64,000 nucleotides of DNA, taken from contig JAIXQS010000128.1 of NCBI GenBank assembly GCA_027485615.1, positions 1,846-65,845 on the forward strand, read 5' to 3'. How positions within the stretch are numbered: the first letter of the stretch is position 1; each line of letters opens with the position of its first letter. The notes under the pieces are model-generated. The model saw only the letters and a list, made by a program, of their open reading frames with translations, was not told the origin of the DNA and did no database searches. This document shows positions 8,029-33,991 of this stretch, in pieces. The translations under genes and the position numbers were made by a program. The stretch is from Verrucomicrobiaceae bacterium (GTDB lineage Bacteria > Verrucomicrobiota > Verrucomicrobiia > Verrucomicrobiales > Akkermansiaceae).

Positions 8029-8246
8029 TGCGATGGTCGTTTTGTCGAGGAAAGCTTCACGATGCGGCCTTTGTGGAAGGATGCAAAACACAATTCACTA
8101 CGGCCACGATGATTCGAACAAAGGCCGAACTCGTCGCGGCCAGAAAGACTTTCCTGAAAAAAGGTATCCTCTGCGTGACGTGAATACACGATCTATTGAC
8201 GTAAATTGAGTTATTTTTGGATTTCCGAAACCGAGAGCTCTGTTAT

Positions 8247-8269: not shown

Positions 8270-11200
8270 ATGAATAATGCCCAAAGAAGCGATCTCACGC
8301 CTAACAGCACACGGTCGGTGCGAATTCCCCCCGGCTTCGCCTTGGTGGCTACGCTTTCGTTGATGGTGCTTCTGGTTATCCTCGCCGTGGGGCTGCTCAG
8401 CCTCTCGGCGGTGACACTGCGCAATACAGGCCAAAGTTCCGCTCAGGCGGAAGCCCGCGCCAACGCCCGAATGGCGCTGATGGTGGCGATAGGGGAATTG
8501 CAAAAGCAAATCGGGCCGGATCAGAGGATCACCGCAAACGGGGGTATCTTGGACGATCCGTCCACTTCTTCCAACGAAGCGCTGCACCCGCATTGGACGG
8601 GTGTTTGGAATTCGTGGAAAGCGGGCGATGGCACCAGCTTCCACCGCAGCGTGGAAGGGGAATCCTTGATGGGTATGGCTCCCACCTACCTGGCCGGGCG
8701 CAACGATTATTTCCGCTCATGGCTGCTCTCGCTCGATCCGGATGAAGCTTCGGACTGGGAATCTGCGAAGAGCCTCAGCCTAGCAGGAGTTCGCACGCCT
8801 TCTGCGGATGAGGATGCCATCCTTCTGGTGGGGGAAGGTTCCTTGGGCGAAGATGCTAAGCCCGTCGATTATGTCAGTGCGAGGCTGATCGATGTGAATC
8901 TCTCCGCCGCAAACAGCGGCTTCCGTGGTCGATACGCCTGGTGGGTGGGCGATCAAACCCAGAAAGCCCGTGTCATGGGTGATACATACGAGAAGGAATC
9001 GACCCTCACCCTCGCGCAGAATATCTCCCGAGCCCAGGCACCCGGTTCCACCGGTTCCAAGACCATCGAAGGCCTTGAGGCGATGACCGTTCTGCAGGAA
9101 GCCAAGCTCGAAGGATTGCCTTCCCTCAAGACGCTGGATGTCGTGATTGCAGACAACGCCAAGCGCCCGGCGCAGCTGAATTTCCACACCGTCACCCCGT
9201 TCTCCGAAGCGGTCATAGCCGATGTCCGCGAGGGCGGGCTGAAGCGCGATCTCTCCTTCCTGCTGGAGCGGAGGATCGACCCCGCCGAAGTGGATAATTA
9301 TCCAAATGAATTCAGCCTCTACAAATTCAATACAAAGGACAATTGGGCCAAGAATGCTCCTTTTTCAGCCATGGCGCCACAGGAATGCGTACCGCTCCAA
9401 GACCTCGCTGCCTTCTATCAGCTCTATGATGCCGTATCGCCGCATGCAGCGGCAAAGGATCCCCAAAGAACCAGCAGCAAACGTGGTGTTCTGTACACCT
9501 CTTCCTACATCGACGGCTTACATATGCTGTCCACGGATTTCGGAACCACATCGAACTCTCCCGTTTATCCCCGGGAATACAGCGCCATATACCGCCAGCC
9601 GAGGATCATCAAGGTACAGTTTCTGGCCAGCCTTTTCTCCAAACTCATTGATCCTCCGATTCCTGCAGACCGGACGAACCCCACCCCGAACACCCATGAA
9701 CTCCTGATTGGCATCACCCCGTCCATCACCTTCTGGAATCCGACGAATCTTCCGGTTGTGTTTCAGCTCAACAGCAATCCGGCTCTTGGAGCACAGATGA
9801 TGCGTTTCGGGGACTTGCCTCTGCAAATAAGGATCAACAAGAACAACGGCCAGAACATCACCGCCTATACTTCTATAGCGAACTTGGCCGGCGTTAACGA
9901 CGGCAACATATTTAATCTCTATTGGGCGGGTTTGCACCCGATCCGCATGGAGCCGGGCGAAATCAAAACCCTTTCCCTTCCCTTCAGCGGAGACCTATCG
10001 GCCCTCAAGGCGACCCACGGATACAACGGCCATTGGAACAAGGGATGGGCCATGAGCAGTTTCTTCATGAAGACCGACACATACTACGTCGGCCATGAGG
10101 TCAAGGTCGGCTGGGAACCTGAATCATTCATCCACTGCAATAATTCCGCCACGGCCGGCACCGGTAACGGCACGGCTCCAAGCGTCCCCACCGCGACCGA
10201 CCCGCGGCATGTGGTGAATAACCGCTTGCGTTTCAAAAGCGCTGACAGGCTCCGGGTGGACATTGGCAGCGGGGGGAATAGCAACGGCATTGGCTGGATG
10301 ACCAATTCATCCTCCTACCAGGACTACAATCCGGCTACATCCAACTGGGACCGCTACAATGGCCTGATGGGTATGCGCGAAGCAGCCGGCGTAGCCTACA
10401 CCCAACCGCTTTTCAGCAAAGGCATGACCGGCGGAGCAGCCACCTTAACCTCCGCGTCGCGCACCGGTGCGTCCATCATTGCCCGCTCGGCAACCAATGC
10501 AGGCTGGCCGTTCATGCATTTTTCCTATCAGGCCGGGGTGGAGACCAGCGAAGGCTCCAATAGCGGGATATCCGGAGGGCGCGAGTTTGCCAGCCGTCCT
10601 TTCCTTCATTCATCTCCCCTCAACTCCTACTCATTCCTCGATAACAACACAGGGAATGCACTCTACAATTTCGGCTGGAACTGGTCCGTAGACCTGATCA
10701 ACGACGTGTATGAGGCTCCTGTGCAGGTAACCAATACAGGCTCGGGCTACTGGGGTGGCGGCTACACCCCGGAATCCGGAACCACCCATGTCATCCAGCA
10801 GGAAATTCCGATCGTCCCGCCCTTGTCGATCGCCGCTCTCAGCCATGCCCGGCTTGGCGGCTGGAGCATCAGCGATCAGTTGGAATTGCCCTACGCAGAG
10901 ATGGTGGGAGTCCCTGGCCAAATAGCGGTCGCCAAACGCCAGCTCACCCGCGCAGTTGGCTTTGGGGGGCTTTATCCGAACACACTGCAAGCCATCGGCA
11001 ATTCCTACGCCCATCCCCAGATCCCGGCCAATCTAGCCTACACCACCGTTGCGCGCACGTTTACCACGGTTCCAAACGGCACACAGAATCAAACCTTCGC
11101 GGATCATTCTTACCTCGCCAACAAGGCGTTGTGGGATGAGTACTTCTTCTCCTCGATCACACCCCAGCGGTCGCAGGTGGAGGCGTTCGAAGCCTCGGAT

Positions 11201-12178
11201 CGCACGGTAGATGAGGTCGCGAATGATTTTTTCTTTGAAAACAACCCCCTCCCGAACCGCCGCATCACGCCTTACATGGCGAACATGAGCGACTCGAAGC
11301 TGGCGGACATCATGGCCAAGAAGAACGATTTCCAGAATGGCCTGGCCGATGAGATCGCCGCCCACCTCATGGTCTCGGGACCATTCAACATCAACTCCAC
11401 TTCCGTCGAAGCTTGGAAAATCTTCTTCTCCAGCCTCAAGAAAAAGCCGGTGGTTTACCTCGATGAAGATGATGCCATGAAAGGGCGCGATCCGATCCTT
11501 GCCAAGGGCCACGAGGGTGTGCCTATAGGCCAGACTGGTCTCGGAGGCGGCCCGCCGTACTCCGGCAGCCCCGATAGCCCTCGCGACGCCAACCAATGGA
11601 CCAGCGCGCGCTCACTGACCGACACTGAAATCGAGGAACTGGCAGAGGCCATGGTCAAGCAGGTCAAACTCCGCGGCCCCTTCCTCTCGCTCTCGGAATT
11701 CGTGAACCGCAGGCTCGACTCGGCCAAGCCCGAACTCGCCGTCAAGGGAGCCCTCCAATCCGCATTGGATGACCCGGAGGTGTCCATCAATTCGGCGTTC
11801 CGCACCAAGGACCGCAAGTTCTCCGCCTCCGAAGTCTCATCCATGAGCCCCGCCTTCCCCCTGGCTGCCCAAGGGCCGATCGCTTACGGCAGCTCGGCTT
11901 ATATCGATCAGGCGGATGTGCTCCGCGGTTTTGCCGAGCAAATCACTCCCCGCGGCGATACCTACGTGATCCGCACTTACGGCGATTCCATCGACGCCGG
12001 TGGCAAGGTCGCCGCCCGCGCGTGGTGTGAGGCCGTCGTGCAGCGCGTCCCCGAATACGTGGACGGGAAGGATGAGCCGTTTGTGAAAGCCGCGGCTCTC
12101 GCTTCTGACAGCAACAAATCCTTCGGACGGAAGATCCAGATCATCAGTTTCCGCTGGCTGAATTCGTCGGAGGTCTGA
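8270..12178 (+). CDS. Giant (1302 aa) GspK-like pseudopilin-type protein, paralogue 1
   Basis: N-terminus PPG|FALVATLSLMVLLVILAVGLLSLSAVTLR (prepilin-like helix, no Glu+5), then AEARANARMALMVAIGELQ. C-terminus has GPFNINSTSVEAW, LRGPFLSLSEFVNR and GDTYVIRTYGDSIDAGGKVAARAWCEAVVQRV...ISFRWL. Confidence 0.85.
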   Translation: MNNAQRSDLTPNSTRSVRIPPGFALVATLSLMVLLVILAVGLLSLSAVTLRNTGQSSAQAEARANARMALMVAIGELQKQIGPDQRITANGGILDDPSTSSNEALHPHWTGVWNSWKAGDGTSFHRSVEGESLMGMAPTYLAGRNDYFRSWLLSLDPDEASDWESAKSLSLAGVRTPSADEDAILLVGEGSLGEDAKPVDYVSARLIDVNLSAANSGFRGRYAWWVGDQTQKARVMGDTYEKESTLTLAQNISRAQAPGSTGSKTIEGLEAMTVLQEAKLEGLPSLKTLDVVIADNAKRPAQLNFHTVTPFSEAVIADVREGGLKRDLSFLLERRIDPAEVDNYPNEFSLYKFNTKDNWAKNAPFSAMAPQECVPLQDLAAFYQLYDAVSPHAAAKDPQRTSSKRGVLYTSSYIDGLHMLSTDFGTTSNSPVYPREYSAIYRQPRIIKVQFLASLFSKLIDPPIPADRTNPTPNTHELLIGITPSITFWNPTNLPVVFQLNSNPALGAQMMRFGDLPLQIRINKNNGQNITAYTSIANLAGVNDGNIFNLYWAGLHPIRMEPGEIKTLSLPFSGDLSALKATHGYNGHWNKGWAMSSFFMKTDTYYVGHEVKVGWEPESFIHCNNSATAGTGNGTAPSVPTATDPRHVVNNRLRFKSADRLRVDIGSGGNSNGIGWMTNSSSYQDYNPATSNWDRYNGLMGMREAAGVAYTQPLFSKGMTGGAATLTSASRTGASIIARSATNAGWPFMHFSYQAGVETSEGSNSGISGGREFASRPFLHSSPLNSYSFLDNNTGNALYNFGWNWSVDLINDVYEAPVQVTNTGSGYWGGGYTPESGTTHVIQQEIPIVPPLSIAALSHARLGGWSISDQLELPYAEMVGVPGQIAVAKRQLTRAVGFGGLYPNTLQAIGNSYAHPQIPANLAYTTVARTFTTVPNGTQNQTFADHSYLANKALWDEYFFSSITPQRSQVEAFEASDRTVDEVANDFFFENNPLPNRRITPYMANMSDSKLADIMAKKNDFQNGLADEIAAHLMVSGPFNINSTSVEAWKIFFSSLKKKPVVYLDEDDAMKGRDPILAKGHEGVPIGQTGLGGGPPYSGSPDSPRDANQWTSARSLTDTEIEELAEAMVKQVKLRGPFLSLSEFVNRRLDSAKPELAVKGALQSALDDPEVSINSAFRTKDRKFSASEVSSMSPAFPLAAQGPIAYGSSAYIDQADVLRGFAEQITPRGDTYVIRTYGDSIDAGGKVAARAWCEAVVQRVPEYVDGKDEPFVKAAALASDSNKSFGRKIQIISFRWLNSSEV

Positions 12179-12214
12179 ACCCCCCGAAGAGTCAGCCCCG
12201 TGCCGCCACCCACC

Positions 12215-12913
12215 ATGAAACTCCCATCCACCATTCTCGCGGCTGCGGTCGCATTCCTCTCAGCCGCCGCGCCCTCCAACGCCCAGCAAGCGGGAGTCAA
12301 GATGCAGTTCATGACCTTCCCCATGACCATGGAACCCTTGCGGGTGGAGCTTTTGGTGGGTGAGGGGAAAACCCTCGAACTCTTCGTGCCAAGCAATGAA
12401 TTGGGTCCCATCGTGAAAGTGCCTCCCATGGCTTCCCTGGTTTTCGGCGAAACCGTGATGGGCGCGGAGGAGAAGCCGGAGTTCAAGGTTTACGGCAAAG
12501 GCAAGCCCATCCAAGCGCCCAAACAGCTCATTCTTCTGCTGCGCAAGGGCAATGACATGGCCGGAGGCTTCGAGGTGCGCGCCGTCTCCAGCGATATCGG
12601 GCAATTCGGCGGAGGCAGGCTTCTATTCGTGAATGCCGCCAGTATCGACATCGCCGGCAAGATCGGAGGGCAGAACGCCTTTGCCCTCAAGCCGGGCGCC
12701 CAAACCATCCTGAAGCCCAAAATGGAAGCCAACGGGCGCCTCGCACACGTGGAGTTTTTCTACAATAAGGAGGGGAAAGCGGTGCCTTTCTTCAGCTCCA
12801 TGTGGCCCGTCGATAAACTCACCCGCGGCCTTGTTTTCTTCTACCACGATCCCAACAACGCCAACAAAATCCAACTCCATAGCTTCCGCGACTTCCTCGA
12901 TGCGGAGGGCTGA
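12215..12913 (+). CDS. Small secreted protein (~232 aa), distant member of the partner family seen at 25502 and 26232
   Basis: Signal peptide MKLPSTILAAAVAFLSAAAPSNAQ. Shares GKIGGQN...L.PG and the C-terminal ...FRDF block with the two downstream paralogues. Starts 37 nt after the giant gene stop. Confidence 0.8.
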   Translation: MKLPSTILAAAVAFLSAAAPSNAQQAGVKMQFMTFPMTMEPLRVELLVGEGKTLELFVPSNELGPIVKVPPMASLVFGETVMGAEEKPEFKVYGKGKPIQAPKQLILLLRKGNDMAGGFEVRAVSSDIGQFGGGRLLFVNAASIDIAGKIGGQNAFALKPGAQTILKPKMEANGRLAHVEFFYNKEGKAVPFFSSMWPVDKLTRGLVFFYHDPNNANKIQLHSFRDFLDAEG

Positions 12914-13025
12914 GGCGCTCCACCGCTCAGCCTTGTAGCCAGGTCTCTTCTTGCCAACTCCGGCACGCTCGCTCAAATTATACGTAATCATTTATCACCG
13001 GAATTTTTCGCCTCCTCCTCCGCCA

Positions 13026-16000
13026 ATGAAAACCTCCCTCAAACGCCTTCTTCGCGGCGCTGTCGCCGTGGGCTTTCCTGCTCGTCACGGCACCCCATCC
13101 CTCTGGATCAGCGCACCATGGAAGCTTGTTGCGGTGCTGCTGCTTTTCTCCGGGTCGGCGCAGGCGCAGTGGCTTGCGGGCTATGATCACAGGAAACCGC
13201 TCGCGATCAATGCGGGCGTCAATGCCGGAACCGGCTATCAGATCCAGGTGAGGGTGGGGGAGTCCAGCGGTGCGGCCGGCTTCGATCTCCATTTGGGAGG
13301 CAGGGCGCTGAACTTCCCGAACGATGTGCGCTTCACCGATAACGACGGAACCACGGGGCTCGGTCACTGGCTTGAATCGACCACAGGCAGCGCACCCAAC
13401 CGGACGGCCACGTTCTGGGTCAAGGTCAACGACGATCTGAACAGCTCCCAGTCCATATTCACCTACTATCGCAAGAGCGCCGACGCGTCCGGCAGCAACG
13501 GAGACGCGACATTCAGTTTCTTTGACGACTTTCCCGGCGCCTCCATCGATGGCGCCAAATGGATCACAGACAACGCCACGGGCTGGTCTGTCACCGGCGG
13601 CGAATTGCGCGGAACGAATACCAGCGGCCGCATCCGAAGCCAGACCGCTTTCAACAGCGGCGTGATCCTCGAAACGAAATACCGCTCCGTCACCCGGCCC
13701 ACCAACGGCAACATGGCGCTGGGATTCTGGGCTAGCACATCTGACAGCTTCGGCTGGCTGAACCACCCCGCTAGCGGCGGCGGTGACTATATGCGCATCA
13801 ATTCTGGTTGGACCGGCATCGCCAATGAGTGCAACGTGCCGGTCATCGCGCGCATGACCGTCCGCGCCACCCAGGTGGACTTTTTGGTGACTCGGCAAGA
13901 TACGGGGGCCGTCTGGCACGACCGGCCCAACAACAACAGCACGGTTTCCAATGAACGGATCGCGCTCGGACACCGCTATGACAATTCGAACCTGAATCAA
14001 ACCTACAACGCCTTCTGGGACTGGGTTCGTGTTCGCAAAAACGCCGACACCACCCCCGTTCTGGGAGCTGCCGGCGCGGAGCAAAACAATATTCCGACTG
14101 TGACGCTGACCGCCCCGGCAAACGGCTCGCAGGTCGTGTCCGGCTCCTCGGCGACGGCCACGGCCACGGTGACCTCCGGCACGCCGCCCTACTCGGTTCA
14201 ATTCTTCAGGACCTTCAACGGCGGAGCGGCCGTATCCGCCGGGACGGACAACACGGATCCCTACTCAGTCAACCTGGGTGTCCTGGCAGACGGAAGTTAC
14301 ACGATTTATGCGACCGTAACCGACAGCGCCTCACCCACTCCTGCCACAGCCACCTCCGCGACCCACACCTTCACGGTTGCGCCGGATGTAACGCCGCCAT
14401 CGCCCAGCCCGATGACCTTTGCCGTCAATCCGGTTTCGATAGGCGTAAGCTCGATTCGCATGGCGGCTACCACCGCTACGGATACGGCCAGCCCTGCGGT
14501 GCAGTATTATTTCGAGAACACGACAAGCGCTACAAACTCGGGATGGATATCCTCCCCAGCGTGGACCGAAAGCGGCCTAACCGTGGGCACATCCTACAGC
14601 TACCGCGTCAAGGCGCGCGACTCGGCCTCAATACCGAACGAGACCGCATTCTCGGGCGTCTCATCCGCTTCACCGGGACCGCTCACGCCCCGCCCCATCA
14701 CGCTGGTCAACCCCGGCTTTGAAAGTCCCATTCTTGCGGATGGATCTTCCACAGACTCCCTCCCCGGGTGGTTGCCCATCGGTAATGTGGTCTTGGCTGC
14801 CGCGTGGAACCCGAACGCGACTTTCTATGCAGCCGAAGCCCCGGAAGGGCAGAATATCGGGGACATTTTCCTGTCCCCCGCCTACTCCGGATTCTCACAA
14901 GTCCTGCAAGGCGCGGAAGGTCAGTTTCAGGCGGACACAGCCTATGCGCTGAAGGTCAGGGTAGGCAGAAACCTGCTGGATCCTTACGATGGATACATCA
15001 TCCAGCTCCTGGCCAATGGCGCCGTCATTGCCCAGGATGACAATTCGACCGTGCCTGCCGCCGGTTCCTTCGTCACCGCATCCTTCAATTACCTCTACAA
15101 TGCCTCGCTTCATTCGCACTTGGTGGGCTTCCCTCTGGAAATCCGCCTCCTCTCCAAGGGGCTCGCCGGGGGCGTGGGAGATGTCAATTTCGATGACGTC
15201 CAGCTCACCTACGCAACATCCAATCCGGTGGCCATTCATGGCGGCCCCTATCGCCTGAGCAAGGACGCCCCGCTGGCCCTCAATGGCAGCGGCTCCCTTC
15301 CTTCGACCGGAGCCACCATTACCGCCTACGAATGGGATCTCGACGGTCGCAACGACCATCTGGGTTTCATCGCCGATGTTACGGGAGCCACGCCCGCCAG
15401 TATCCCCTACGCCACGCTCACCGGCACCTACGGCATGGCAGCAGGGGCGAACACCATCCGCCTGCGCATCACCGACAATGCCGGCCTGTCCGTCATCGGC
15501 ACCACCGCGGTCAACATCTTTTCCCTTGTGAACTATGTTGGCCCCGATACCCCGCGTGGCCAGGACGAGCAATGGAACAAGACCACCAATTGGGACACCG
15601 CCACCGTGCCGTCCGGCCTTGTCGATGTCGTGATTCCGGCGAACAAATTCCTACCCTGCCTTTCCGCCACCACGCCGACTTACACCGGCAACCTGGCCAT
15701 CGGCGCGAATTCCCAGATCTCCATCGGATGGACGACCAGCAGCCTCTTGGCAGCAAATTCATTGGGCAAGCCGGGTTCGACTGTCATCACGATGAACTCG
15801 GGTTCATCCATAAATTTCCGCATCGGGGGCACACCCATCGTCCCAGCCATCGCGCTCGCTGGGGATGCTTCGGTCATCTTGGGTAGTTCGACCCAAACCG
15901 GAGCGCAAGCCAGTTTCAACCATCCCATCACAGGCAGCTACCGCCTCAGCTTCTTTGGCAACGGCCATGGAAGCTGCGTCGCCAATTTAAACGCCCCGAA

Positions 16001-19000: not shown

Positions 19001-21518
19001 CGTGTTCAACTATGATGGATCTGAAATGAGGCTTGGCTCCCTCACCAAAACCGGCACCGGAAAACTCACACTTTCAGGAGAAAATAACTACACCGGCAAC
19101 ACCCTGGTGTCGGGCGGTGTGCTTCACCTCGCCGGCGGAATCCAGAGATCCCCCATCATTGTGAACAGCGGAGGCACACTCGGATTCACACTCGGAAGCA
19201 CCATCACGTCCACCAAGAGGCTTACGCTCAATGAAGGGCACAAGATCAGGATTGTCGGAGACCCCACTTTGGACTCCTACACGCTGATGATTGCCGACTC
19301 CATTGTGGGCGGCGCGCCGACGCTCGAAACGCCGATCCCCCTCTACTTCCTAGAGATCGCTGACCAGGAACTCAGACTCACCAAGTCCGATATCACGCCT
19401 CCCGTCGTTGTTGACATCACGCATGACCAAGGCACTGGCCCCAACGTAGGCCCCATTTTTCAAAATACCGTTGTCACCTACACGGTGACTTTCAATGAGG
19501 ACATCGATCACAACACGGTGTCTGCATCCGATTTCGCAAACGCTGCTGTCAGCACCCCCTCCGCATTCACCATTGGGACGATCATGGAAGTCTCTCCAGG
19601 CGTTTTCACCGTACAAGTCACTCCAACCACGGCAGGAAATCTCCAGTTGAGCATTCCCACCACTGCGGACATCCGCGATGCCGCCATCAACCTATTGGAC
19701 AGTGATCCGGCCATTGAGGACGACAGCACCATCCGTGTGGTGGATCCCGCCACCAACTGGCTGGTCGGCACGGATATTGAGGATGATCAAGGTGGCGGCG
19801 ACGTCACCCAAGGGACGCTTGTCACCTACACCATATTTTTCGGAAGGGACATTAATCACACCACCCTGGAGCCCGCGGATTTCGGCAATGCCGGGACTTC
19901 TTCCGTCAACATCGGCGCGGTTGCCGAAATCTCGCCGGGGATTGTAACGGTGCAAGCCACACCAACCACCACAGGCACACTGCGGTTCCAGATCAATGCG
20001 GGCGCGACCCTCATCGATGCGGTTGGCAATAACCTGGATACCGCCTCGCCGATCGTCGATGATACGACGATTTCGGTCGTCGATCTCACTCCGCCGACAT
20101 TGGTGGGAACCTCCTTTGTCGATAACAAGGGTGGCGGTCCCGTCACCGTGAACACCCTGGTGACCTACACCGTGACTTTCAGCGAGGACATGAATACCAG
20201 CACTGTCACTGCTGATGTCTTCGGCAATCAGGGCACCTCCGCGGTCACCGTAGGAGCGGTCACGGAAACCTCGCCGGGAGTCTTCAGCTTGCAAGTCACA
20301 CCGACCACCGAAGGCACACTGCGAATCCAGATCAATGGGGACGCGGTGATCACGGACGTGGCTGGAAATATCCTGGATGTTTCCACCACAATCGCCGACG
20401 ACACCACGATCACCGTGGACGGAACCGCACCGACCCTGGCCGCCGCCAACATCGTCGACGACAAGTCCGGCGGCCCAGTCACCGTGAACACCCTGGTCAC
20501 CTACACCGTGACCTTCAGTGAGGACATGAACGCCAGCACCTTCACCACTGACGACTTCGGCAATGCCGGGACAAGTGCCGTGACCCTGGGCACGATTACG
20601 GAAACCGCGCCCGGTGTCTTCACCGTACAGGTCACCCCGACCACGGCAGGAACACTGATTTTCAGCATGAAACAAAACGCGGTGCTGAGCGATGTCGCAG
20701 GCAACAACCTCAACACGACAACAGCCATCACCGACGACACCACGATCACCGTGGACGGCACCGCACCGACCCTGGCCGCCGCCAACATCGTCGACGACAA
20801 GTCCGGCGGCCCAGTCACCGTGAACACCCTGGTCACCTACACCGTGACCTTCAGTGAGGACATGAACGCCAGCACCGTCACCGCCGACGACTTCGAGAAC
20901 GCGGGCACTGCGGCAACGACCATCGGCGCCGTCACCGAAACCACGCCGGGTGTCTTCACCGTCGCCGCCACCCCGACCGCCGCCGGAACCCTCATCCTTC
21001 GCGTCAAGGCCGGGGCGATCCTCGCCGACGCCGCAGGCAACAACCTCAACACCACCTCCGCCATCACCGACAACACCACGATCACCGTGAATGGAGCCAC
21101 CGGCTCCTACGAAACATGGTCTGCAGGCGCCCCATTCGCCGGTGATGCCAACGGAGACGGCGTTGCCAACGCCCTCGCATGGGTGCTCGGAGCCGCCGAC
21201 CCGAACGCCGCCGCCTACGCCTTGCTCCCGACATTCGACGCGAAGAGCGATCCGAACTTCGTCATTTTCACCTACCGCCGCACCGACGCGGCCAATAACG
21301 ATCCCAATACCGTCATCACCGTTCAACAAAGTACGGCCCTGACTTCCAATGGCTGGGGAACCGCCGTCCATGACGGCACGAACGTGATCGTCACGGTAAC
21401 CGACAACTTCCACTCCACCGTTCCCGGAATCGACCGCGTGGAGGTGAAACTCCGCAAATCGGTATTCTCTCCGGCCGGCAAGCTCTTCGTCCGTCTGAAC
21501 GTCGCACCCACCCCGTAG
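13026..21518 (+). CDS. Giant (2830 aa) multidomain surface adhesin: DUF2341/LamG-like, Ig/FN3/PKD, PATR beta-helix repeats, five Ig-like tandem repeats, and a Verrucomicrobia-type C-terminal domain
   Basis: Start taken at ATG 13026 (MKTSLKRLL...LLLFSGSAQAQ). WLAGYDHRKPLAINAG is a DUF2341-like opening. Repeated G.LTLSG.N.YTG.T.V..G.L.L units are autotransporter-associated beta-strand repeats. C-terminus has GDANGDGVANALAWVLGAADPN. Confidence 0.9.
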   Translation: MKTSLKRLLRGAVAVGFPARHGTPSLWISAPWKLVAVLLLFSGSAQAQWLAGYDHRKPLAINAGVNAGTGYQIQVRVGESSGAAGFDLHLGGRALNFPNDVRFTDNDGTTGLGHWLESTTGSAPNRTATFWVKVNDDLNSSQSIFTYYRKSADASGSNGDATFSFFDDFPGASIDGAKWITDNATGWSVTGGELRGTNTSGRIRSQTAFNSGVILETKYRSVTRPTNGNMALGFWASTSDSFGWLNHPASGGGDYMRINSGWTGIANECNVPVIARMTVRATQVDFLVTRQDTGAVWHDRPNNNSTVSNERIALGHRYDNSNLNQTYNAFWDWVRVRKNADTTPVLGAAGAEQNNIPTVTLTAPANGSQVVSGSSATATATVTSGTPPYSVQFFRTFNGGAAVSAGTDNTDPYSVNLGVLADGSYTIYATVTDSASPTPATATSATHTFTVAPDVTPPSPSPMTFAVNPVSIGVSSIRMAATTATDTASPAVQYYFENTTSATNSGWISSPAWTESGLTVGTSYSYRVKARDSASIPNETAFSGVSSASPGPLTPRPITLVNPGFESPILADGSSTDSLPGWLPIGNVVLAAAWNPNATFYAAEAPEGQNIGDIFLSPAYSGFSQVLQGAEGQFQADTAYALKVRVGRNLLDPYDGYIIQLLANGAVIAQDDNSTVPAAGSFVTASFNYLYNASLHSHLVGFPLEIRLLSKGLAGGVGDVNFDDVQLTYATSNPVAIHGGPYRLSKDAPLALNGSGSLPSTGATITAYEWDLDGRNDHLGFIADVTGATPASIPYATLTGTYGMAAGANTIRLRITDNAGLSVIGTTAVNIFSLVNYVGPDTPRGQDEQWNKTTNWDTATVPSGLVDVVIPANKFLPCLSATTPTYTGNLAIGANSQISIGWTTSSLLAANSLGKPGSTVITMNSGSSINFRIGGTPIVPAIALAGDASVILGSSTQTGAQASFNHPITGSYRLSFFGNGHGSCVANLNAPNAFNEIYTAGGPYVDGGVTIQGNAPGSLGTGNLTLTALGGGGNSGLLIINAPNSMADGATLSMAGNTAVKITMNANDTISRLVINGVQLPAGTYGSTTSSASFKQTWMAGTGILTVTDGQGSYWDLNGATAGAGGASPTGTWDTSTSWSASPAGTAATSSWVAGGKAVFAAGSDATGAYTVTVGGPNDITVTNTFSASSNTGRSSFSATRPGWALNSGNCVVVLVSSLNATGFTATYAGLPMTVQGVFESRNAYTGIAYIISDSLPSSGDVVINVPRVWAPANTGAYENQGTTYSILSLSNVATPGTAATRVVSGNPPSTSTLAYSTSINGSFVVGVSSDSNWRNTPKTVTGRCSQIIIQAQPAYANFGHFQGSVAAAGSYTDVYNASPTAMITLPLNAKTIPNPLLSGVGQKISGLEFERGAVTITSSKLEMQATSLVTSASGVTATIASQITGLASSGLTKKGAGILVLSNATNNYTGPTSVLNGTLRLGASNAVPNTAVSLSGDAPGVIASLDLNGFNNTVAGLTFGGSSMTSGSAVTTGAGTLTLGGNVLYSGLNSPLGASLAGNLSLGSATRDFQIADSSSAANDLTVSAVISGTGGLTKTGIGTLLLSGNNAYTGLTTVTSGLLILSGSNNAAATGGMAVNDGAAIRFDSLGSIPGTGSNVTIQSGGLAFFVSSFGSGNLPAALARINPASAGVIAVDNFTSAPFNLATNGLNVSLGSLNDVTYTGTITPSGGAYRIGGGTGAITLTGANALTGGNSLIVNGRVAIANSNNLSGATTINPTGRLQIGTGGTSGSLASTTILNNGMLAFNRSDTLTQGTHFWATIGGTGVLEQAGSGTLILNGNNAYSGGTNLLAGTLRLGHANAIGSGPLAIYSGALDVASALTLTSNNAITLGGSFSFGGTANLNMGTGGVSITDDHIITLNGTNKMLTFGGAMTNVSGGDQTITVNGTGNTLVSGGLNMSSDPNSLLIALTIGGTGDVSITGTVNDFSGGPDPVFNYDGSEMRLGSLTKTGTGKLTLSGENNYTGNTLVSGGVLHLAGGIQRSPIIVNSGGTLGFTLGSTITSTKRLTLNEGHKIRIVGDPTLDSYTLMIADSIVGGAPTLETPIPLYFLEIADQELRLTKSDITPPVVVDITHDQGTGPNVGPIFQNTVVTYTVTFNEDIDHNTVSASDFANAAVSTPSAFTIGTIMEVSPGVFTVQVTPTTAGNLQLSIPTTADIRDAAINLLDSDPAIEDDSTIRVVDPATNWLVGTDIEDDQGGGDVTQGTLVTYTIFFGRDINHTTLEPADFGNAGTSSVNIGAVAEISPGIVTVQATPTTTGTLRFQINAGATLIDAVGNNLDTASPIVDDTTISVVDLTPPTLVGTSFVDNKGGGPVTVNTLVTYTVTFSEDMNTSTVTADVFGNQGTSAVTVGAVTETSPGVFSLQVTPTTEGTLRIQINGDAVITDVAGNILDVSTTIADDTTITVDGTAPTLAAANIVDDKSGGPVTVNTLVTYTVTFSEDMNASTFTTDDFGNAGTSAVTLGTITETAPGVFTVQVTPTTAGTLIFSMKQNAVLSDVAGNNLNTTTAITDDTTITVDGTAPTLAAANIVDDKSGGPVTVNTLVTYTVTFSEDMNASTVTADDFENAGTAATTIGAVTETTPGVFTVAATPTAAGTLILRVKAGAILADAAGNNLNTTSAITDNTTITVNGATGSYETWSAGAPFAGDANGDGVANALAWVLGAADPNAAAYALLPTFDAKSDPNFVIFTYRRTDAANNDPNTVITVQQSTALTSNGWGTAVHDGTNVIVTVTDNFHSTVPGIDRVEVKLRKSVFSPAGKLFVRLNVAPTP
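19389..21095 (+). repeat. Five in-frame tandem repeats of ~336 bp (112-114 aa Ig-like units) inside the adhesin gene
   Basis: Units all contain ...GGGPVTVNTLVTYTVTFSEDMN.STVTADDFGN.GTSAV..G...E..PGVFTVQVTPTT.GTL...DDTTITVDG. Segments 20395-20540 and 20731-20876 are identical apart from one mismatch. Confidence 0.85.
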
Positions 21519-21592
21519 AACGACCACCTGTTATCCGCCTGAGAATTTTTCGCACAAGCCTACGAGGCGGGAAAAGAAGTCCGGCCTTAAAT

Positions 21593-21624
21593 GCAAACGG
21601 TCTCCAGAGAGGCAAACGGTCTAA
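21593..21624. repeat. Two direct copies of GCAAACGGTCT (19-nt spacing); the second matches the outer 14 nt of the IS630 right end
   Basis: 21593-21603 and 21612-21622 are identical. GGCAAACGGTCTAA at 21611-21624 equals 28468-28481 (IS terminus plus flanking TA). Confidence 0.6.
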
Positions 21625-21666
21625 CCTGCAAAAATGCTGCATTGTGAGGCTCTAAAACGTGAGTAA

Positions 21667-21685
21667 CTTTACCAGTTAAATACAC
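21667..21685 (+). promoter_or_regulatory. Conserved leader motif CTTTACCAGTTAAATACAC ending 4 nt before the ATG of the second giant gene
   Basis: Counterpart of 8247-8265, with the same distance to the start codon. Confidence 0.3.
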
Positions 21686-21689
21686 CGCC

Positions 21690-24600
21690 ATGAAACACGC
21701 CGCTAAAACCCAAAATCAGCGTTCTTTTTACCCAAAAAGGGAAAAATCCGGCTTCGCCCTGGTCGTGACGCTTTCGCTGATGATCCTTCTGGCGATCCTC
21801 GCGGTGGGTATGCTGAGCCTGTCTGCGGTGACCCTCCGCACATCCGGCCAGGGATCCGCCCACGCGGAGGCTCGGGCGAACGCCCGCATGGCGCTGACGA
21901 TTGCAATCGGCGAACTGCAAAGCAATACCGGCCCGGATACGCGGGTCACCGCCCCGGCCAATATCGTGAATGAGGACTACCCCCAGGTCTTGGGCGTATG
22001 GCGGAGCTGGGAGGGGACGGATCACGAAGCCAACGGTCGCCCCGTCGCCCCGGATTACGCTTCCAAGGACAAGTCCGAATCAAAGGGCGGCCGTTTCCTC
22101 GACTGGCTCGTTTCCAGCGCGGAGGCGGCTGCCATCGGTGATCCTGACGGGATACCCAGGATCGAGCACGCCCCTTCCCTGGTTCGCAACTCCGCAAGTG
22201 GTGCAACAATCCCCCTGCTCGCAGGCGGCTCGCTCGCATTGAATGACACCCGGCAAATCCACGTGGTTCCAAGTAAAATTGAGGACAGCGGGCGCTACGC
22301 ATGGTGGATCTCGGGGGAAAACCAGAAGGCCGCATTATCCCAGCCCTACAAACCAAGAACCGACGATGCCGCGGGCTTGGTCGAGTTGGGTCAATCGCAC
22401 ACGGTGGCCAATCCCGCCGTATTCGGGCTACCCTCCCTGCTCACCGACCCAGAACCCCATCTTTCAAGCACCGCGCCCGCGAAACCAAGCCGCAAGGTGG
22501 CGAGCCGCCAGACCATGGCCGTGGTCGAGGCCGGAAACGCCAAGGAGCCGCAGAAAAAATTCCATGACCTCTCGGCTTACTCCATCGGCCTTTTGACCAA
22601 CACCGCCACCGGCGGCTGGCGCAAGGACATGTCCATCCTCACGGAGAGGTGGGACAACATCTACAGCAGTTATCCGGGCGGGCGGCTGCCGCTTTTCCGT
22701 CTCACACCCACATCCGGGGCAACCACCTCCGTGCCCAAGCCGGTCAAGCCCGCACCGTCGGTTTTAGTTACCAACTCCGCAGCTCTGACGGCAGCGACCC
22801 CCGCCCAGTCGAATCTTTATCCGTGGAGCGGGTATTCGACAATCATAGGCTGGCCCCTGACCAACCCGCCCGTCACACCCAACACATACCATGCAGCGTC
22901 AGCTTCCTGGCAATCGTTGGTCAGTTACGCGACGTCGTATAGGAATTTTTCCAACTATTCCGGCAATGCGGTAAGCCCGTTTATCTGGGACAGGATCATG
23001 ACGCCGGCTTCCAATCTTGGGGTCGAAAAAATATACAACTACAAGCACCGGCAGTTGTTGTATCCCCAGATCGCACGGTTCCAGTTTCTTGTTTATGCGA
23101 GGGCGGTTGAAAGGATTCCAGAACAGAATCCAAAACGATATGAAATAAAGTTAATGTATGTGCCGTTTTTCACTTTGTGGAATCCTTACAATGTCTCCTT
23201 GGAGCACACGATCAGCGGAACGCTCAATGGAGGAGACGGCACAGGAACCCATCCAAATTTCCTTGGATTCGGATGGCGAAGATCTCCTCCGGGAGTCATG
23301 GCGATCGTGAACAAGGCAACTTATGCCAATCCCGATGCCGTCCCTGCAAATCAATACAAATTGTTCACACCCGGCAACTTTCAGGTTCTGGACAGGACAG
23401 GGAATAACGTAAATGCATATGACACATTCATTCCGGCCAATACTGTTAAGTTTGGCACGAACAATAAATGGGTTGATAAACGAACATTCGGATGCTGGCT
23501 CCCCGAAGGCACACTTTCTTTCAAGCCGGGCGAAGCCAAGATTTTCTCGCCGGGTCAACTCGATCCGGCCTACGGCTTTTCCGGTGTGATGAGGCTGAAA
23601 GAAGGCTACAAGCCAACAGAAATCATAGGGTCTGAATTCACCGCTTTGTCGAATCTTTTGGCCACCCAAAGCTTCTGGTTCCTGATGAGAACGGATAGGG
23701 TCACGCAGCCATATCTTAGCCGTGAGCCTGGAAGCGGCTTCTCGCTGTCTTTCGCAAATGGGAGTAGCCACTTTGGGGCGGGAGCCAAACTGCCATCTGG
23801 TCCGGGAGACGAGTATCACAACATTACTTCACTGGCTGCACAAAGTGTCGGTGAAAAGTACTGGCCGCCGGATGAGGTGGATGAGGTGGGTTACTCGGTG
23901 GGAGAGCTTGCCTCCGGGCCGTGGATTCCGCTTTTTTCGACCAGTTTCGGCCCCCGCATGACCATCGGCACCGGACCGGGGACGAAGCAGAACCGACCAA
24001 CCAAAGGCGCGGTTCAGAACAACGCGCTGGCCGCCATGGTTTTGAGCGATTCGAAATCACTCAATCCGGAGGCCAAAGACCACCCTGCGAACAACACCTT
24101 CGACTTCGCTTACCATTCCCTTAGCATCGGCTCCAACATCACTCCGAACCTGAGTAACTCGCAAGGTTTCATTGGAACGGGATACCAGAGCGGGGACGGC
24201 TTGTCGCGTTTGGTTATGTGTGACATCCCGATACGCCCGATGGCTTCCCTTGTGGAGTTGATGGGATGGAATCCGAGGGGGCAAAATCCCTACCCGCCAT
24301 TCCAGATGAATTTGATCGGAAACAGCGACGCGACGCCGCTGATTCCGATCGACAAGATTGTTCCAAATAGTCTGTCCCCGAATAGTGTGGATAAGAACCT
24401 CATGCACGACGACGCCTACTGCGCGAACCATCTGCTTTTCGATGATTGGTTCTTATCCTCCATCGCGACTGAGCCGGAAACCTCAAAAACCATCGATACG
24501 GTCTACACGGAGTTCCTCAAGGGTGAGAGGGAACTGGTGAACCGCAGTTATCGTCCGATCAGCGCCGACAGCAGGGTCACGGACTCGGTGGCCGCGACGC

Positions 24601-25475
24601 GGGTAGGGGAAATCATCACCAGCAATGACGGCTGGCTCAAGGTGGCATCCCGTTTCGAAGTGGAGGGAATGTTCAATGTGAATTCCACCTCTGTCGATGC
24701 CTGGACGGCACTCCTCGGGCACGCGAGAAGCCTCGACAAGATCGCGATGCACGGCGCGGACGGGCTTGCGGAAACCAACACCTCCAGCAAGCACGCCGTT
24801 ACGCGCGGTGCGGTCGCCACGGACGTGGAGGCGGGCACAGGCAAGGGTTTCGGCGGACGGTTTGACAAGGCATCCGAATACACCGGTTTCAGAGCCCTGA
24901 GCGATGACCAGATCAAGGATCTCGCCGAAAAAGTGGTTGAGCAGGTCCGCCTTCGCGGCCCGTTCCTCTCGTTGTCCGAGTTCGTCAATCGCCATCTGGT
25001 CGCCAACAAGGACGTGGCCCTGGCGGGCGCGATCCAGAGCGCGCTCGACAAGCTTGACGAAGACCCGATGGACGAGCTCCGCGATCCGAAGAATTCGTTG
25101 TCGGATAACACCATGTCGCCGGGAGATGCCAAACTCTCAGGTGTCGGCTACGAATTCAAGGAAGCATCCGAAGGTGGAAGCGCCTACGGCGCGCCGGGCT
25201 GGATCCGGCAGGCCGACATCCTCCGTCCCATCGCGCCCATAATCTCCGTGCGGGATGATACGTTCACGATCCGCGCTTATGGAGATTCCATGGATCAGAA
25301 CGGCAATGTCATCGCGAAAGCCTGGTGCGAGGCCGTCGTGAAAAGAACCCGGGAGTTTTCCGACAAATCGGATGCCGCGGACTCGGTCAACCCGCCTGTG
25401 AACGGCATGAATGCGACATACGGCAGACGTTATGAAGTCATCTCTTTCAGATGGTTGAGCGCCGACGAAGTGTGA
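21690..25475 (+). CDS. Giant (1261 aa) GspK-like pseudopilin-type protein, paralogue 2
   Basis: KSG|FALVVTLSLMILLAILAVGMLSLSAVTLR, AEARANARMALTIAIGELQ, GMFNVNSTSVDAW, LRGPFLSLSEFVNR, DDTFTIRAYGDSMDQNGNVIAKAWCEAVVKRT...ISFRWL. The terminal modules are collinear with the 8270 protein. Confidence 0.85.
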   Translation: MKHAAKTQNQRSFYPKREKSGFALVVTLSLMILLAILAVGMLSLSAVTLRTSGQGSAHAEARANARMALTIAIGELQSNTGPDTRVTAPANIVNEDYPQVLGVWRSWEGTDHEANGRPVAPDYASKDKSESKGGRFLDWLVSSAEAAAIGDPDGIPRIEHAPSLVRNSASGATIPLLAGGSLALNDTRQIHVVPSKIEDSGRYAWWISGENQKAALSQPYKPRTDDAAGLVELGQSHTVANPAVFGLPSLLTDPEPHLSSTAPAKPSRKVASRQTMAVVEAGNAKEPQKKFHDLSAYSIGLLTNTATGGWRKDMSILTERWDNIYSSYPGGRLPLFRLTPTSGATTSVPKPVKPAPSVLVTNSAALTAATPAQSNLYPWSGYSTIIGWPLTNPPVTPNTYHAASASWQSLVSYATSYRNFSNYSGNAVSPFIWDRIMTPASNLGVEKIYNYKHRQLLYPQIARFQFLVYARAVERIPEQNPKRYEIKLMYVPFFTLWNPYNVSLEHTISGTLNGGDGTGTHPNFLGFGWRRSPPGVMAIVNKATYANPDAVPANQYKLFTPGNFQVLDRTGNNVNAYDTFIPANTVKFGTNNKWVDKRTFGCWLPEGTLSFKPGEAKIFSPGQLDPAYGFSGVMRLKEGYKPTEIIGSEFTALSNLLATQSFWFLMRTDRVTQPYLSREPGSGFSLSFANGSSHFGAGAKLPSGPGDEYHNITSLAAQSVGEKYWPPDEVDEVGYSVGELASGPWIPLFSTSFGPRMTIGTGPGTKQNRPTKGAVQNNALAAMVLSDSKSLNPEAKDHPANNTFDFAYHSLSIGSNITPNLSNSQGFIGTGYQSGDGLSRLVMCDIPIRPMASLVELMGWNPRGQNPYPPFQMNLIGNSDATPLIPIDKIVPNSLSPNSVDKNLMHDDAYCANHLLFDDWFLSSIATEPETSKTIDTVYTEFLKGERELVNRSYRPISADSRVTDSVAATRVGEIITSNDGWLKVASRFEVEGMFNVNSTSVDAWTALLGHARSLDKIAMHGADGLAETNTSSKHAVTRGAVATDVEAGTGKGFGGRFDKASEYTGFRALSDDQIKDLAEKVVEQVRLRGPFLSLSEFVNRHLVANKDVALAGAIQSALDKLDEDPMDELRDPKNSLSDNTMSPGDAKLSGVGYEFKEASEGGSAYGAPGWIRQADILRPIAPIISVRDDTFTIRAYGDSMDQNGNVIAKAWCEAVVKRTREFSDKSDAADSVNPPVNGMNATYGRRYEVISFRWLSADEV

Positions 25476-25501
25476 GGTATGATCATCAAAAGTCCCCGAG
25501 C

Positions 25502-26218
25502 ATGAGTTTTTCCCCCGTAATAGCCATCCTTAGCGCCGCCTTCCTGATTTGCGCAAGCGCTCTCCATGCGAAACCGCGTACATGCCGCATCGTGTTTCCC
25601 GAGCGCCCCGAAGGCTCGCCGAAAATCGCCTACCTCTTTGATGGCTCGAAGAGCCAGGGCGTCTCGCTGCCCAGCATGAATTTGTCCGAGGTGATCGAGA
25701 TGCCCCGCGGCGAACTCGCCATCGCCATGCTGGCCAGCGCGATCAGCGATCCCGAACTGCTGCCTCCGCAAGCCCCCGTGCTGAAGATTCCTGAGGGGGT
25801 GAAGGACTTCTACATCATCATCACCCCGGATCCGGAGAACAAAACGCTCCCTATCAAAATGAACCTCGTTGACACGGGGGGCGGCAAACTCAAAGCGGGG
25901 GAAACCCTATGGTATAATTTCACCGGGCACCGGATCGCCGCGAAACTGGGAAGCGCCCAGATGACGGTCGATCCCCAAGGTCGGACCATTTCCAAAGACC
26001 CGATGCCGGCCAGCGGCTACTACGTCGCGCAGTTCGCCTTCCAGGCGAATGGCAAAGGCGCATACGCCCCGATCACGGAACAAAGCTGGTGGCACGATGC
26101 GAACAGCAAGCACCTCGGGTTCATATACAATACAGGAGGGAAATTGCCCAAGATCTACTTTTTCCGGGACTTCCGTGATCCGGAAGCTACAAAGGAAGAG
26201 ATCAAGGTTGTTGAGTAG
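25502..26218 (+). CDS. Small secreted partner-family protein (238 aa)
   Basis: Start at ATG 25502 (MSFSPVIAILSAAFLICASALHA). RTCRIVF...LPSMNLS...ASGYY...APITEQSWWHDANSKHLGFIYNTGGKLPKIYFFRDFRDP is closely paralogous to the next gene. Confidence 0.8.
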   Translation: MSFSPVIAILSAAFLICASALHAKPRTCRIVFPERPEGSPKIAYLFDGSKSQGVSLPSMNLSEVIEMPRGELAIAMLASAISDPELLPPQAPVLKIPEGVKDFYIIITPDPENKTLPIKMNLVDTGGGKLKAGETLWYNFTGHRIAAKLGSAQMTVDPQGRTISKDPMPASGYYVAQFAFQANGKGAYAPITEQSWWHDANSKHLGFIYNTGGKLPKIYFFRDFRDPEATKEEIKVVE

Positions 26219-26231
26219 CTCCTGCATTCCC

Positions 26232-26933
26232 ATGAAAAGCCCGCATTCCCTCCTCCTCGCTCTCCTCATATCCTTGCTGAGCCATTTCGCGCAAGCGGAC
26301 ACAGGGCGCACCTGCCGCATCGTGTTCCTTGATCGCCCTGCGGACGCGCCCAGAATCCTCCACCTTTTCGATGGCACCACTTCCCAGGAAGTCGAGCTGC
26401 CGAGCATGAACCTCTCGCCGGTGTACAAGTTCGCTCCGGACGCCACCCGGCTCAAACTCCTGACCGCCAAAGTCGAGAATCCCGAAGAAGTCCCTGCTGA
26501 CGCGCCTTCCGTCGAGATTCCAGCAGACCACACCGACATCCTCCTGCTCGTCTTCAGCGATCCGGATCACAAGATCGCACCCGTCAAACTGGAAGCGGTC
26601 AATCTGGCGGGCGAAAATTTCAAGATCGGCCAGACGCTTTGGATCAACCATACCGACCATACCATCGAAGGAAAGTTAGGCGGGCAAAACCTGTCACTCG
26701 GACCGGAAAGCTCACAAATCGCGGATGCCCCGGTCAGCGACAAAGGCGTCCCGGCTAGCGGCTACTACACTGCGAGTTTCACGTATCAAGTCGAAGAGAA
26801 GGGGATGTTTGCTCCGATCACGGAACAGAACTGGTGGCACGATGCCAAGAGTAGGCATCTGGGTTTCATAGTAAATTCAGGAAGGAAATTGCCAAAAATC
26901 TTCTTGTTCCGAGATTTCCGTAACCCGAGTTGA
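26232..26933 (+). CDS. Small secreted partner-family protein (233 aa), tandem duplicate
   Basis: Start at ATG 26232 (MKSPHSLLLALLISLLSHFAQA). RTCRIVF...LPSMNLS...ASGYY...APITEQNWWHDAKSRHLGFIVNSGRKLPKIFLFRDFRNP. Confidence 0.8.
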   Translation: MKSPHSLLLALLISLLSHFAQADTGRTCRIVFLDRPADAPRILHLFDGTTSQEVELPSMNLSPVYKFAPDATRLKLLTAKVENPEEVPADAPSVEIPADHTDILLLVFSDPDHKIAPVKLEAVNLAGENFKIGQTLWINHTDHTIEGKLGGQNLSLGPESSQIADAPVSDKGVPASGYYTASFTYQVEEKGMFAPITEQNWWHDAKSRHLGFIVNSGRKLPKIFLFRDFRNPS

Positions 26934-27046: not shown

Positions 27047-27333
27047 TCACCGCCCTCCCGCCACCGGCCCGATCGTCCCGCCGGGTACGAAAGCCGCATG
27101 GGTTTTGGTTTGGCTCACATCGACCTTTCCATGGCTCACGTGGGCTGCCCATTTGACCAGATGGCGGATCAGCGGGCGGCTGTCCCAGCGGATGTGGGAA
27201 ATGGCGGGCTGGCACCATTCGAAGTCCGGGCTGTGGTCGGTGCAGACCAAGGAAACGTCGCCGGGCGTAGCAAGCCGCCGCTGCGCCAGGAACTGGAGGG
27301 CGGCGAAGAAAAGCGGCGCTTCCTGGATGATTA
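27047..27333 (-). pseudogene. 3' fragment (~95 codons) of a LacI/GntR-type sugar-binding-domain regulator, truncated at the IS630 left end
   Basis: LATPGDVSLVCTDHSPDFEWCQPAISHIRWDSRPL resembles the (I/V)P.D(I/V)S(L/V)VGFDD... C-terminal part of periplasmic-binding-fold regulators. The first ~21 codons of ORF 27047-27397 are IS sequence. Confidence 0.5.
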
Positions 27334-28479: not shown

Positions 28480-28527
28480 TAAATTGGATATTGGCGATTG
28501 GATATGCGGGTAAAAAAAGAATTGAGC

Positions 28528-33757: not shown

Positions 33758-33831
33758 AGGCGTTCGCGGGAAGGTGCGCCCATTCCCTAGCCGATGCGCG
33801 CGGCGAGAGCAAGGGGGGATGATGGGTCTTC

Positions 33832-33991
33832 GGGGAGCACACGCGCCCCCGCGTCTCGCGGAGTGCGCCCTCGCTCTCCGTCGGTCGGAAAGACCATTCG
33901 CGCCGCATAGCCGAATCAACGCCCGCCCTATCTCAAGCCAAGTTTCCGGCGGGGGCGCCGGAAACAACACGCGAGGGCGCGTGTGCTCCCC
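33832..33991. repeat. Palindromic intergenic element: 23-nt inverted repeats (22/23) enclosing ~114 nt with an internal 9-bp hairpin
   Basis: GGGGAGCACACGCGCCCCCGCGT (33832-33854) pairs with ACGCGAGGGCGCGTGTGCTCCCC (33969-33991). Inner hairpin TTTCCGGCG-GGGG-CGCCGGAAA lies at 33943-33964. Confidence 0.7.

Follow-up and report, generated by a model that had tools for sequence, protein, structure and literature searches.

In type IV filaments, the prepilin peptidase relies on Gly-1 as its determinant, and Glu5 forms a pair with the N-terminal end of the adjacent subunit, while the tip pseudopilin of type II secretion systems (T2SS), GspK, is devoid of Glu5. In type IVa pili, the tip complex comprises the minor pilins FimU/PilVWX and the large non-pilin adhesin PilY1. 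A further described group, the uncharacterised family TIGR02600 ('Verru_Chthon cassette protein A'), consists of proteins of ~1300 amino acids (aa) accompanied by prepilin-type partners B, C, and D. The present work concerns a stretch of 64,000 nucleotides (the window) from contig JAIXQS010000128.1 of a Verrucomicrobiaceae bacterium, in which a block of co-directional genes on the + strand (8270-26933) encodes, in this order, the giant protein A1, the small protein S1, a 2830-aa protein, a second giant protein, A2, and the small proteins S2 and S3. As judged from sequence and profile comparisons, the N-terminus of these giants is pseudopilin-like and of the GspK class, and A1-S1 and A2-S2-S3 are two ancient paralogous cassettes of a large Verrucomicrobiales family.

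The giants resemble GspK in their class-III-type N-terminus, with Gly-1, a hydrophobic helix, and no Glu5, but they are four times larger, have a leader of ~21 residues, show no T2SSK domain in Pfam, hhalign, or Foldseek comparisons, occur as several paralogs per genome, and are paired with S proteins, which are Sec-secreted and immunoglobulin (Ig)-like. They are similar to TIGR02600 in size and share with it the phylum and the N-terminal ~60 residues, whereas most giant members show no similarity to that family past the N-terminus and their partners are Sec-signal S proteins instead of prepilin-type B/C/D proteins. The type IVa tip complex offers a likeness in its large (>1000 aa) head placed at the fibre tip with accessory proteins, and by this analogy the 2830-aa protein could play a PilY1-like adhesin role. 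However, in the giants the head and the pilin-like helix form one polypeptide, Pfam detects no family in these proteins, PilY1/PilC-type models included, and the neighbouring major subunit, where present, is of the GspG type and not of the PilA type.

N-terminus and head of the giant proteins

Both open reading frames (ORFs; 1302 and 1261 aa), together with the sequence features that a first-pass annotation of the window had quoted for them, were recovered in place. At its N-terminal end, A1 reads RIPPG|FALVATLSLMVLLVILAVGLLSLSAVTLR...AEARANARMALMVAIGELQ. Among aligned relatives, Gly-1, Phe+1, and Leu+3 are invariant (104/104), Ala+2 and Thr+6 are nearly so, and the residue before Gly-1 is usually basic, while position +5 is occupied by Val, Ala, Ile, Ser, or Thr and by Glu in none of the 104. 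When the family was aligned with hhalign to a reference set of 42 diverse GspK sequences, all carrying PF21687 and most also PF03934, the match reached 87.6% probability (E 3.5e-6) over the first 66 columns only, which extend past the membrane segment and through the amphipathic part of the helix. The prepilin-type G|F helix without Glu5 that the first-pass annotation had assigned to the GspK class thus stood. The invariant G|F junction is compatible with cleavage by the prepilin peptidase, and the conservation around it is far stronger than a plain membrane anchor would require.

The C-terminus gave a different picture. The motifs of A1 in this region (GPFNINSTSVEAW, LRGPFLSLSEFVNR, and YVIRTYGDSIDAGGKVAARAWCEAVVQR...IISFRWL), which are also present in A2, had been taken as signs of T2SSK homology, a proposal that found no support in Pfam and profile-profile searches or in a Foldseek search with a whole-chain model. 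True GspK proteins all carry the T2SSK domains PF21687/PF03934, and at E<=0.1 no Pfam family, these two included, was found in A1, A2, or S1-S3. None of 59 C-terminal 380-residue fragments of the family, each scanned at E<=10, matched T2SSK, and seven of them gave weak helix-hairpin-helix matches (HHH_6 or HHH_3, best E 0.014). The hhalign comparison of the C-terminal domain with the 42 GspK sequences returned 2% probability; at low stringency the two were collinear, with FNVNST opposite GspK CFNLNAL and the TFVIR...AWCEAVVQR strands opposite the last GspK strands, an alignment not distinguishable from chance. Alignments to a single E. coli GspK and to a single Verrucomicrobial GspK were uninformative past the N-terminus. 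The AWCEA motif of the penultimate beta-strand contains the only invariant cysteine of the family, beside an invariant Glu (W1252-C1253-E1254 of A1, window 12020-12028; the same motif occurs in A2).

In NCBIfam, A1 and A2 match only TIGR02600 and the GspK model NF037980, weakly and over residues ~20-88. The TIGR02600 scores are 19.3 bits for A1 and 24.9 bits for A2, confined to model positions 1-61, versus a cut-off of 332.3, and those of NF037980 are 19.7 and 23.8 bits versus a cut-off of 130. Relatives score 15-28 bits with NF037980 and from as low as 12 to at most 40 bits with TIGR02600, so that the membership of the latter family suggested earlier does not hold. One homolog, P0025, bears the UniRef label 'Verru_Chthon cassette protein A', a term for which the literature search returned no paper. 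Proteins B, C, and D of that cassette are absent from the window, as had been remarked: a six-frame scan for G[FM][AST]L[IVL] found a prepilin-like N-terminus only in A1 and A2.

A structural model was obtained with AlphaFold2 for a 1200-residue homolog, P0110, which is 50% identical to A1 (113 sequences in the alignment). The predicted local distance difference test (pLDDT) score of this model is 89.2 and its predicted template-modelling score 0.91, values which indicate that the modelled head is a single compact body. An N-terminal helix (residues 2-53, 52 residues) leads into a beta-rich middle; a helical region comes next, and the chain ends in three long strands. Foldseek searches with the model gave no match at E<=0.001, either among 350,542 PDB chains or among viral models; for the whole 1200-residue chain, GspK (3ci0_K) appeared at rank 11 with E 0.75, probability 0.03, and a template-modelling score of 0.14. 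PDB sequences searched with profiles of the entire family and of its C-terminal domain yielded noise only. The compact head, of ~1,150-1,250 residues in the giants, is thus without a detectable relative among solved structures. For S1, the AlphaFold2 model (pLDDT 89.4) predicts a tandem of two beta-sandwiches, whose best Foldseek match (E 1e-6) is to the Ig-like tandem in the extracellular part of PepT1/2; this fold is a generic one.

Recurrence of the cassettes and their link to type II secretion

A word-indexed search retrieved 819 homologs of the giants, whose named hosts all belong to Verrucomicrobiota (Akkermansiaceae, Luteolibacter, Haloferula), except for one metagenome-assembled genome that is probably mis-binned. 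An exhaustive search with the C-terminal profile collected 3,555 cluster representatives (50% identity) at E<=0.001, 2,324 of them at E<=1e-30, and the best 150 of the 3,555 clusters consist entirely of giants (1,100-1,370 aa) or pieces of them. Every named representative in the sample is annotated as 'hypothetical protein', and those tested give the same weak, exclusively N-terminal model matches. The giants constitute a large, unnamed, and uncharacterised family devoid of a Pfam or NCBIfam model; loci related to them number 467 in species-representative genomes and 493 in metagenomes.

Hidden Markov models (HMMs) of the giants and of S were run over 158 of these loci, fetched from genomes and metagenomes. 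S adjoins the giant in 136 of the 143 cases with enough flanking sequence (91/94 and 45/49 in the two sets). It comes immediately after the giant in 83 and 45 cases, and the other eight, from Roseibacillus, have it upstream in divergent orientation. The co-location of the ~235-aa family with the giants, put forward by the first-pass annotation, is thereby borne out. The Roseibacillus loci with S divergent and upstream of the giant, instead of downstream, are L042, L045, L047-L049, L053, L054, L057, and L076. The 76 homologs of S1 are all hypothetical proteins, and S1 itself belongs to no Pfam or NCBIfam family; a Sec-type signal peptide is present in each of S1, S2, and S3. Two variants of this arrangement were observed. 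The giant P0046, of 1476 aa (European Nucleotide Archive contig of 168,666 bases), runs into S-family sequence via a short unrelated linker, which may reflect either a frameshift or assembly error or a natural giant-S fusion. Moreover, a giant subfamily of 1130 aa (L086, 10001-13393, on a 1.35-Mb contig of Verrucomicrobiales) has no S gene downstream and is preceded by a 187-aa gene without known family, in the proximity of a TetR regulator, a rhamnosidase, a GH39 enzyme, and a pectate-lyase-like protein.

Two subtypes recur, often as neighbours, namely an A1-type giant with one S gene (sometimes two) and an A2-type giant with two S genes. In BLASTP comparisons, A1 and A2 behave as paralogs, 38% identical over residues 22-334 (3e-44) and 33% over residues 826-1302 (3e-59), and the middle ~490 residues cannot be aligned. 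Orthologs of A2 are considerably closer, at 80% identity in L087 and 68% in L088 and L100. The order A1-S-large protein-A2-S(-S) of the window is found again in L088, L100, and L107; it is therefore a conserved super-module and not the product of a local duplication.

The 2830-aa protein carries a Sec signal peptide, DUF2341, Big_7, and HpiC1-like domains, the latter resembling carbohydrate-binding modules (CBM), four PATR repeats (82 bits), and TIGR02601. No autotransporter beta-barrel family was found in it with Pfam or NCBIfam, nor any known sorting signal at its C-terminus. Homologs occur just after S of A1-type cassettes in 16 of 80 genome loci, as well as in L088, L100, and L107, and the copy in L070, which precedes gspG, is 40% identical over long stretches. 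This protein had been described as an adhesin bracketed by the two giants; its placement between the A1 and A2 cassettes is correct, and its recurrence indicates a third partner of A1-type cassettes, which is more than a bracketed gene.

The closest tie to type II secretion is found in the metagenome contig L100, where the six-gene order of the window continues directly, without change of strand, into gspG, a gspH-like gene, I-like (138 aa) and J-like (283 aa) pseudopilin genes, a canonical GspK of 313 aa (PF21687, 52 bits), L/M-like genes, and the secretin GspD. This segment (14857-23160 of L100) is a complete Verrucomicrobial T2SS operon, with genes of 412, 178, and 205 aa between gspK and gspD that have no clear Pfam family. 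In L034, L055, and L070, gspG and a gspH-like gene likewise follow the cassettes on the same strand. The gspG genes of these three loci score 103-122 bits (cut-off 88.85); gspG comes after the last S gene in L034, L055, and L100 and right after the large protein in L070. In addition, two gspE genes and gspF are located 5 kb downstream of the cassette in L156, gspF is found in L072, and three prepilin-type ORFs come straight after S in L056, the only such case among the 158 loci and a point of likeness to TIGR02600, although their matches to B/C/D are weak and N-terminal only.

In L100, the K position of the gspGHIJK operon belongs to the separate canonical GspK and not to a giant. Since that operon has its own GspK, the giants are, as far as sequence can tell, additions to GspK and not enlarged GspK orthologs. 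The first-pass annotation had regarded the assembly route as unknown. It was right that the window encodes no pilus or T2SS machinery, given that Pfam found no family of these systems among the large ORFs, searches of the 64 kb with E. coli GspD-O (phmmer) and with a gsp operon of Verrucomicrobial origin (tblastn) found no match, and the motif scan was likewise negative; in relatives, however, the same gene order runs into gspGHIJK...D or gspG/gspH.

Candidate roles of the cassettes

The reading that we favour, tentatively and somewhat short of even confidence, is that the giants, after cleavage at Gly|Phe, serve as exchangeable cap subunits without Glu5 on a GspG pseudopilus whose genes lie elsewhere in the genome. 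In this mechanism, the giants would enter the inner membrane, be processed by the prepilin peptidase, and join the GspG pseudopilus as alternative caps, replacing canonical GspK or standing beside it. Growth of the pseudopilus would then bring the 130-kDa head to or through the outer membrane, where it would be presented together with the two-Ig-domain partner S and, in the case of A1, also with the giant beta-strand-repeat protein. If so, the tip position would be able to accommodate exchangeable modules of very large size and to coexist with canonical GspK, which would widen the supposed repertoire of type II secretion machines.

Several observations weigh against such caps. Past ~66 residues, no significant similarity to pilins or pseudopilins was found by HMM, profile-profile, or Foldseek searches. 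The prepilin-methylation models TIGR02532 and PF07963, suggested as a check by the first-pass annotation, do not match A1 or A2 at E<=0.1, a null result that is expected from a GFxxxE model because the giants lack Glu5. A T2SS or pilus gene lies within 10 kb in only 6 of the 158 related loci, and none is present in the 64-kb window. Despite this low count, the same-strand arrangement of cassettes and gsp genes argues for a functional link; a genome would be expected to have only a handful of such genes. Moreover, with a canonical GspK already present in the L100 operon, there is no need for the giants to act as caps, and the literature search found no experiments on any member of the family.

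Alternatively, the giants could be signal-anchored periplasmic proteins with an uncleaved anchor that cooperate with S in the periplasm, e.g., by binding imported glycans or processing them, without involvement of any pseudopilus, an explanation that we consider rather unlikely. It would accord with the 152 of 158 loci, and the window itself, where no T2SS or pilus gene is nearby, with the silent methylation models, with a head devoid of pilin-like similarity, and with the ordinary Sec signal and predicted soluble Ig-like tandem of S. However, a plain anchor needs neither an invariant G-F-A-L after a basic residue nor a Glu-free position +5, the similarity to GspK continues through the amphipathic part of the helix, and gspG follows on the same strand after the last S gene in L034, L055, and L100 and after the large protein in L070.

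The continuity of cassettes with a complete gsp operon that has its own GspK would also be expected if the giants, the 2830-aa protein, or both were cargo or cargo-adaptors of the T2SS, with S assisting in the periplasm as chaperone or targeting factor and with a pilin-like N-terminus that only tethers the giant until export to the cell surface. The large protein, a conserved neighbour of the cassettes, would suit this role, as its Sec signal, PATR repeats, and CBM-like HpiC1 domains are typical of surface proteins and no autotransporter barrel accompanies them. Nevertheless, known T2SS substrates use cleavable Sec or Tat signals and not class-III-type anchors, the absence of Glu5 specifically fits tip pseudopilins, and the large protein is missing from 64 of 80 genome loci, making a cargo function quite unlikely. 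Finally, that the giants are enlarged true GspK orthologs or members of TIGR02600 is highly improbable, since these two models, albeit the best curated matches and despite the label of P0025, the resemblance of FN[IV]NSTS and RGPF.S.SEF to helix-hairpin-helix signatures, the weak HHH_6/HHH_3 matches in 7 of 59 fragments, and the low-stringency collinearity of motifs and terminal strands, reach only 12-40 bits, at the N-terminus, versus cut-offs of 332 and 130, with no T2SSK match at E<=10 in 59 fragments, 2% probability in the C-terminal hhalign, a Foldseek E of 0.75 for GspK, a canonical 313-aa GspK in the same L100 operon, and no B/C/D partners in the window.

Concerning the possible function of caps mounted in this way, the commonest immediate neighbours of the cassettes are sugar-sensing regulators of the Peripla_BP_3/GntR or AraC type, sulfatases, ThuA, pectate lyase, 3-keto-disaccharide hydrolase, SASA esterases, and HpiC1-like/LTD/CotH surface proteins. 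ThuA-family genes account for 8 of 130 surveyed neighbour genes. In the window, genes for a SASA esterase and a DUF6288 protein precede the cassettes, and downstream of them come genes for an AraC-PBP regulator, a C1 peptidase, and a rhamnosidase. The census of neighbours is only suggestive of a link to glycans, because sulfatases and carbohydrate enzymes abound in Verrucomicrobiales genomes and the sampled loci include orthologous ones (the Roseibacillus set), which also weighs against the proposed role. Comparison of window positions 558-26933 with L087 shows flanking genes that are 74-89% identical and an A2-S-S cassette at 80%, whereas the A1-type giant of L087 is only 43% identical to A1 and the 2830-aa protein is missing there; cassette content is therefore exchanged between close lineages. 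Given several diverged cassettes per genome, the adjoining sugar regulators, sulfatases, and carbohydrate enzymes, and the variation of cassette content among close relatives, the heads probably capture or handle polysaccharides in a substrate-specific manner, a proposal weaker than that of the cap subunits.

Verrucomicrobiota break down recalcitrant sulfated algal and mucin glycans, which they accumulate in their cells without SusC/D-type importers. In this phylum, a pilus-linked route of glycan uptake is suspected, and across Akkermansiaceae such uptake has been connected with a type IV-like pilus locus (PMC13174399). A Verrucomicrobiote alginate-utilisation cluster contains a PulG-like pseudopilin, with 67 homologs in that genome, and a pseudopilin is among the genes over-expressed on alginate (PMC13274419). 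The present loci agree with the Akkermansia MUL loci (PMC13174399) and with the PulG-like pseudopilins linked to polysaccharide utilisation loci (PMC13274419) in the phylum, in having pilus or pseudopilin genes within polysaccharide-uptake loci, and in the expansion of paralogs, although the subunits described in those sources are small pilins (Amuc_1102-like, PulG-like), and giant Glu5-less proteins and the S family do not figure in them. A further parallel is the bindosome of Sulfolobus, in which a pilus-like system, Bas, assembles sugar-binding proteins that have class III signals (PMC3047682), so that large functional proteins with a pilin-type signal are placed by a machine at the surface for sugar acquisition. 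That system, however, is archaeal, uses binding proteins of the ABC-transporter family, and has no sequence relation to the giants, whose glycan role is deduced from context.

A more far-reaching scheme, which we deem unlikely as a whole, would have the T2SS pseudopilus of Verrucomicrobiales carry 130-kDa heads that are interchangeable, specific for their substrates, and novel in fold, each accompanied by an Ig-like co-subunit and in some cases by a beta-helical lectin-like protein of 2,800 residues. It would be a bacterial counterpart of the archaeal bindosome for polysaccharide capture or import without SusC/D. Such a carrier, if real, would explain 'selfish' glycan uptake in Verrucomicrobiota, and the cassettes beside sugar regulators and sulfatases are concrete, deletable candidates for the suspected pilus-linked route.

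Features and surroundings of the cassettes in the window

The features of the cassette cluster are collected in Table 1. The start of S2 is probably that listed, the ORF beginning at 25451, and the ORF of S3 from 26049 represents an upstream extension only. A scan for consensus promoters and terminators found fewer sites than in shuffled sequences and was uninformative on the limits of operons.

Table 1. Coordinates of the cassette genes and of the A1 signal region in the window
Feature	Length (aa)	Position	Strand	Description
Giant A1	1302	8270..12178	+	Glu5-less prepilin-like N-terminus; ~1,250-residue head without recognised domain
A1 N-terminal class-III-type signal and alpha-1 helix		8270..8509	+	Basic leader, G22|F23, hydrophobic helix, AEARANARMAL..AIGELQ
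S1	232	12215..12913	+	Signal peptide; two predicted beta-sandwich (Ig-like) domains; partner of A1
2830-aa secreted protein	2830	13026..21518	+	DUF2341, Big_7, HpiC1-like, 4 PATR repeats; ATG at 13026
Giant A2	1261	21690..25475	+	Ancient paralog of A1; A2-type subfamily
S2	238	25502..26218	+	S-family partner of A2
S3	233	26232..26933	+	Second S-family partner of A2

An ORF divergent from A1 (7174-8091, - strand) has no Pfam family, but its counterpart in L087 shares 89% identity with it over 222 residues. It represents a real gene, the true length of which is probably below that of the 305-aa ORF. On the other side, between the cassette cluster and the AraC-PBP regulator gene, lies an insertion sequence of the IS630 family (27331-28482) with 33-nt terminal inverted repeats that are 85% complementary, enclosing a DDE_3/HTH transposase ORF (27474-28454). 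Displacement of gsp genes from the window by this element was considered and rejected: L087, the most similar contig sampled, which has a stretch 78% identical to the flank at the cassette end of the window, shows no gsp match in ~3.6 kb downstream of its cassettes.

Further along the window, ORFs of 806 aa (31550-33970, - strand) and 795 aa (49651-52038, + strand) have no significant Pfam family, the latter coming after a rhamnosidase gene and a cytochrome-c/DUF7133 gene. The segment 52001-54611 has a G+C content of 0.535 versus ~0.62 in its surroundings and holds two adjacent ORFs, 53425-54009 and 54006-54611, both without Pfam family. Finally, a single 863-aa ORF (58643-61234), overlapped by a 986-aa antisense ORF without family, joins subunit I of a cbb3 oxidase (COX1) to mono-haem FixO and is followed by a FixP-like cytochrome c at 61513-62148.

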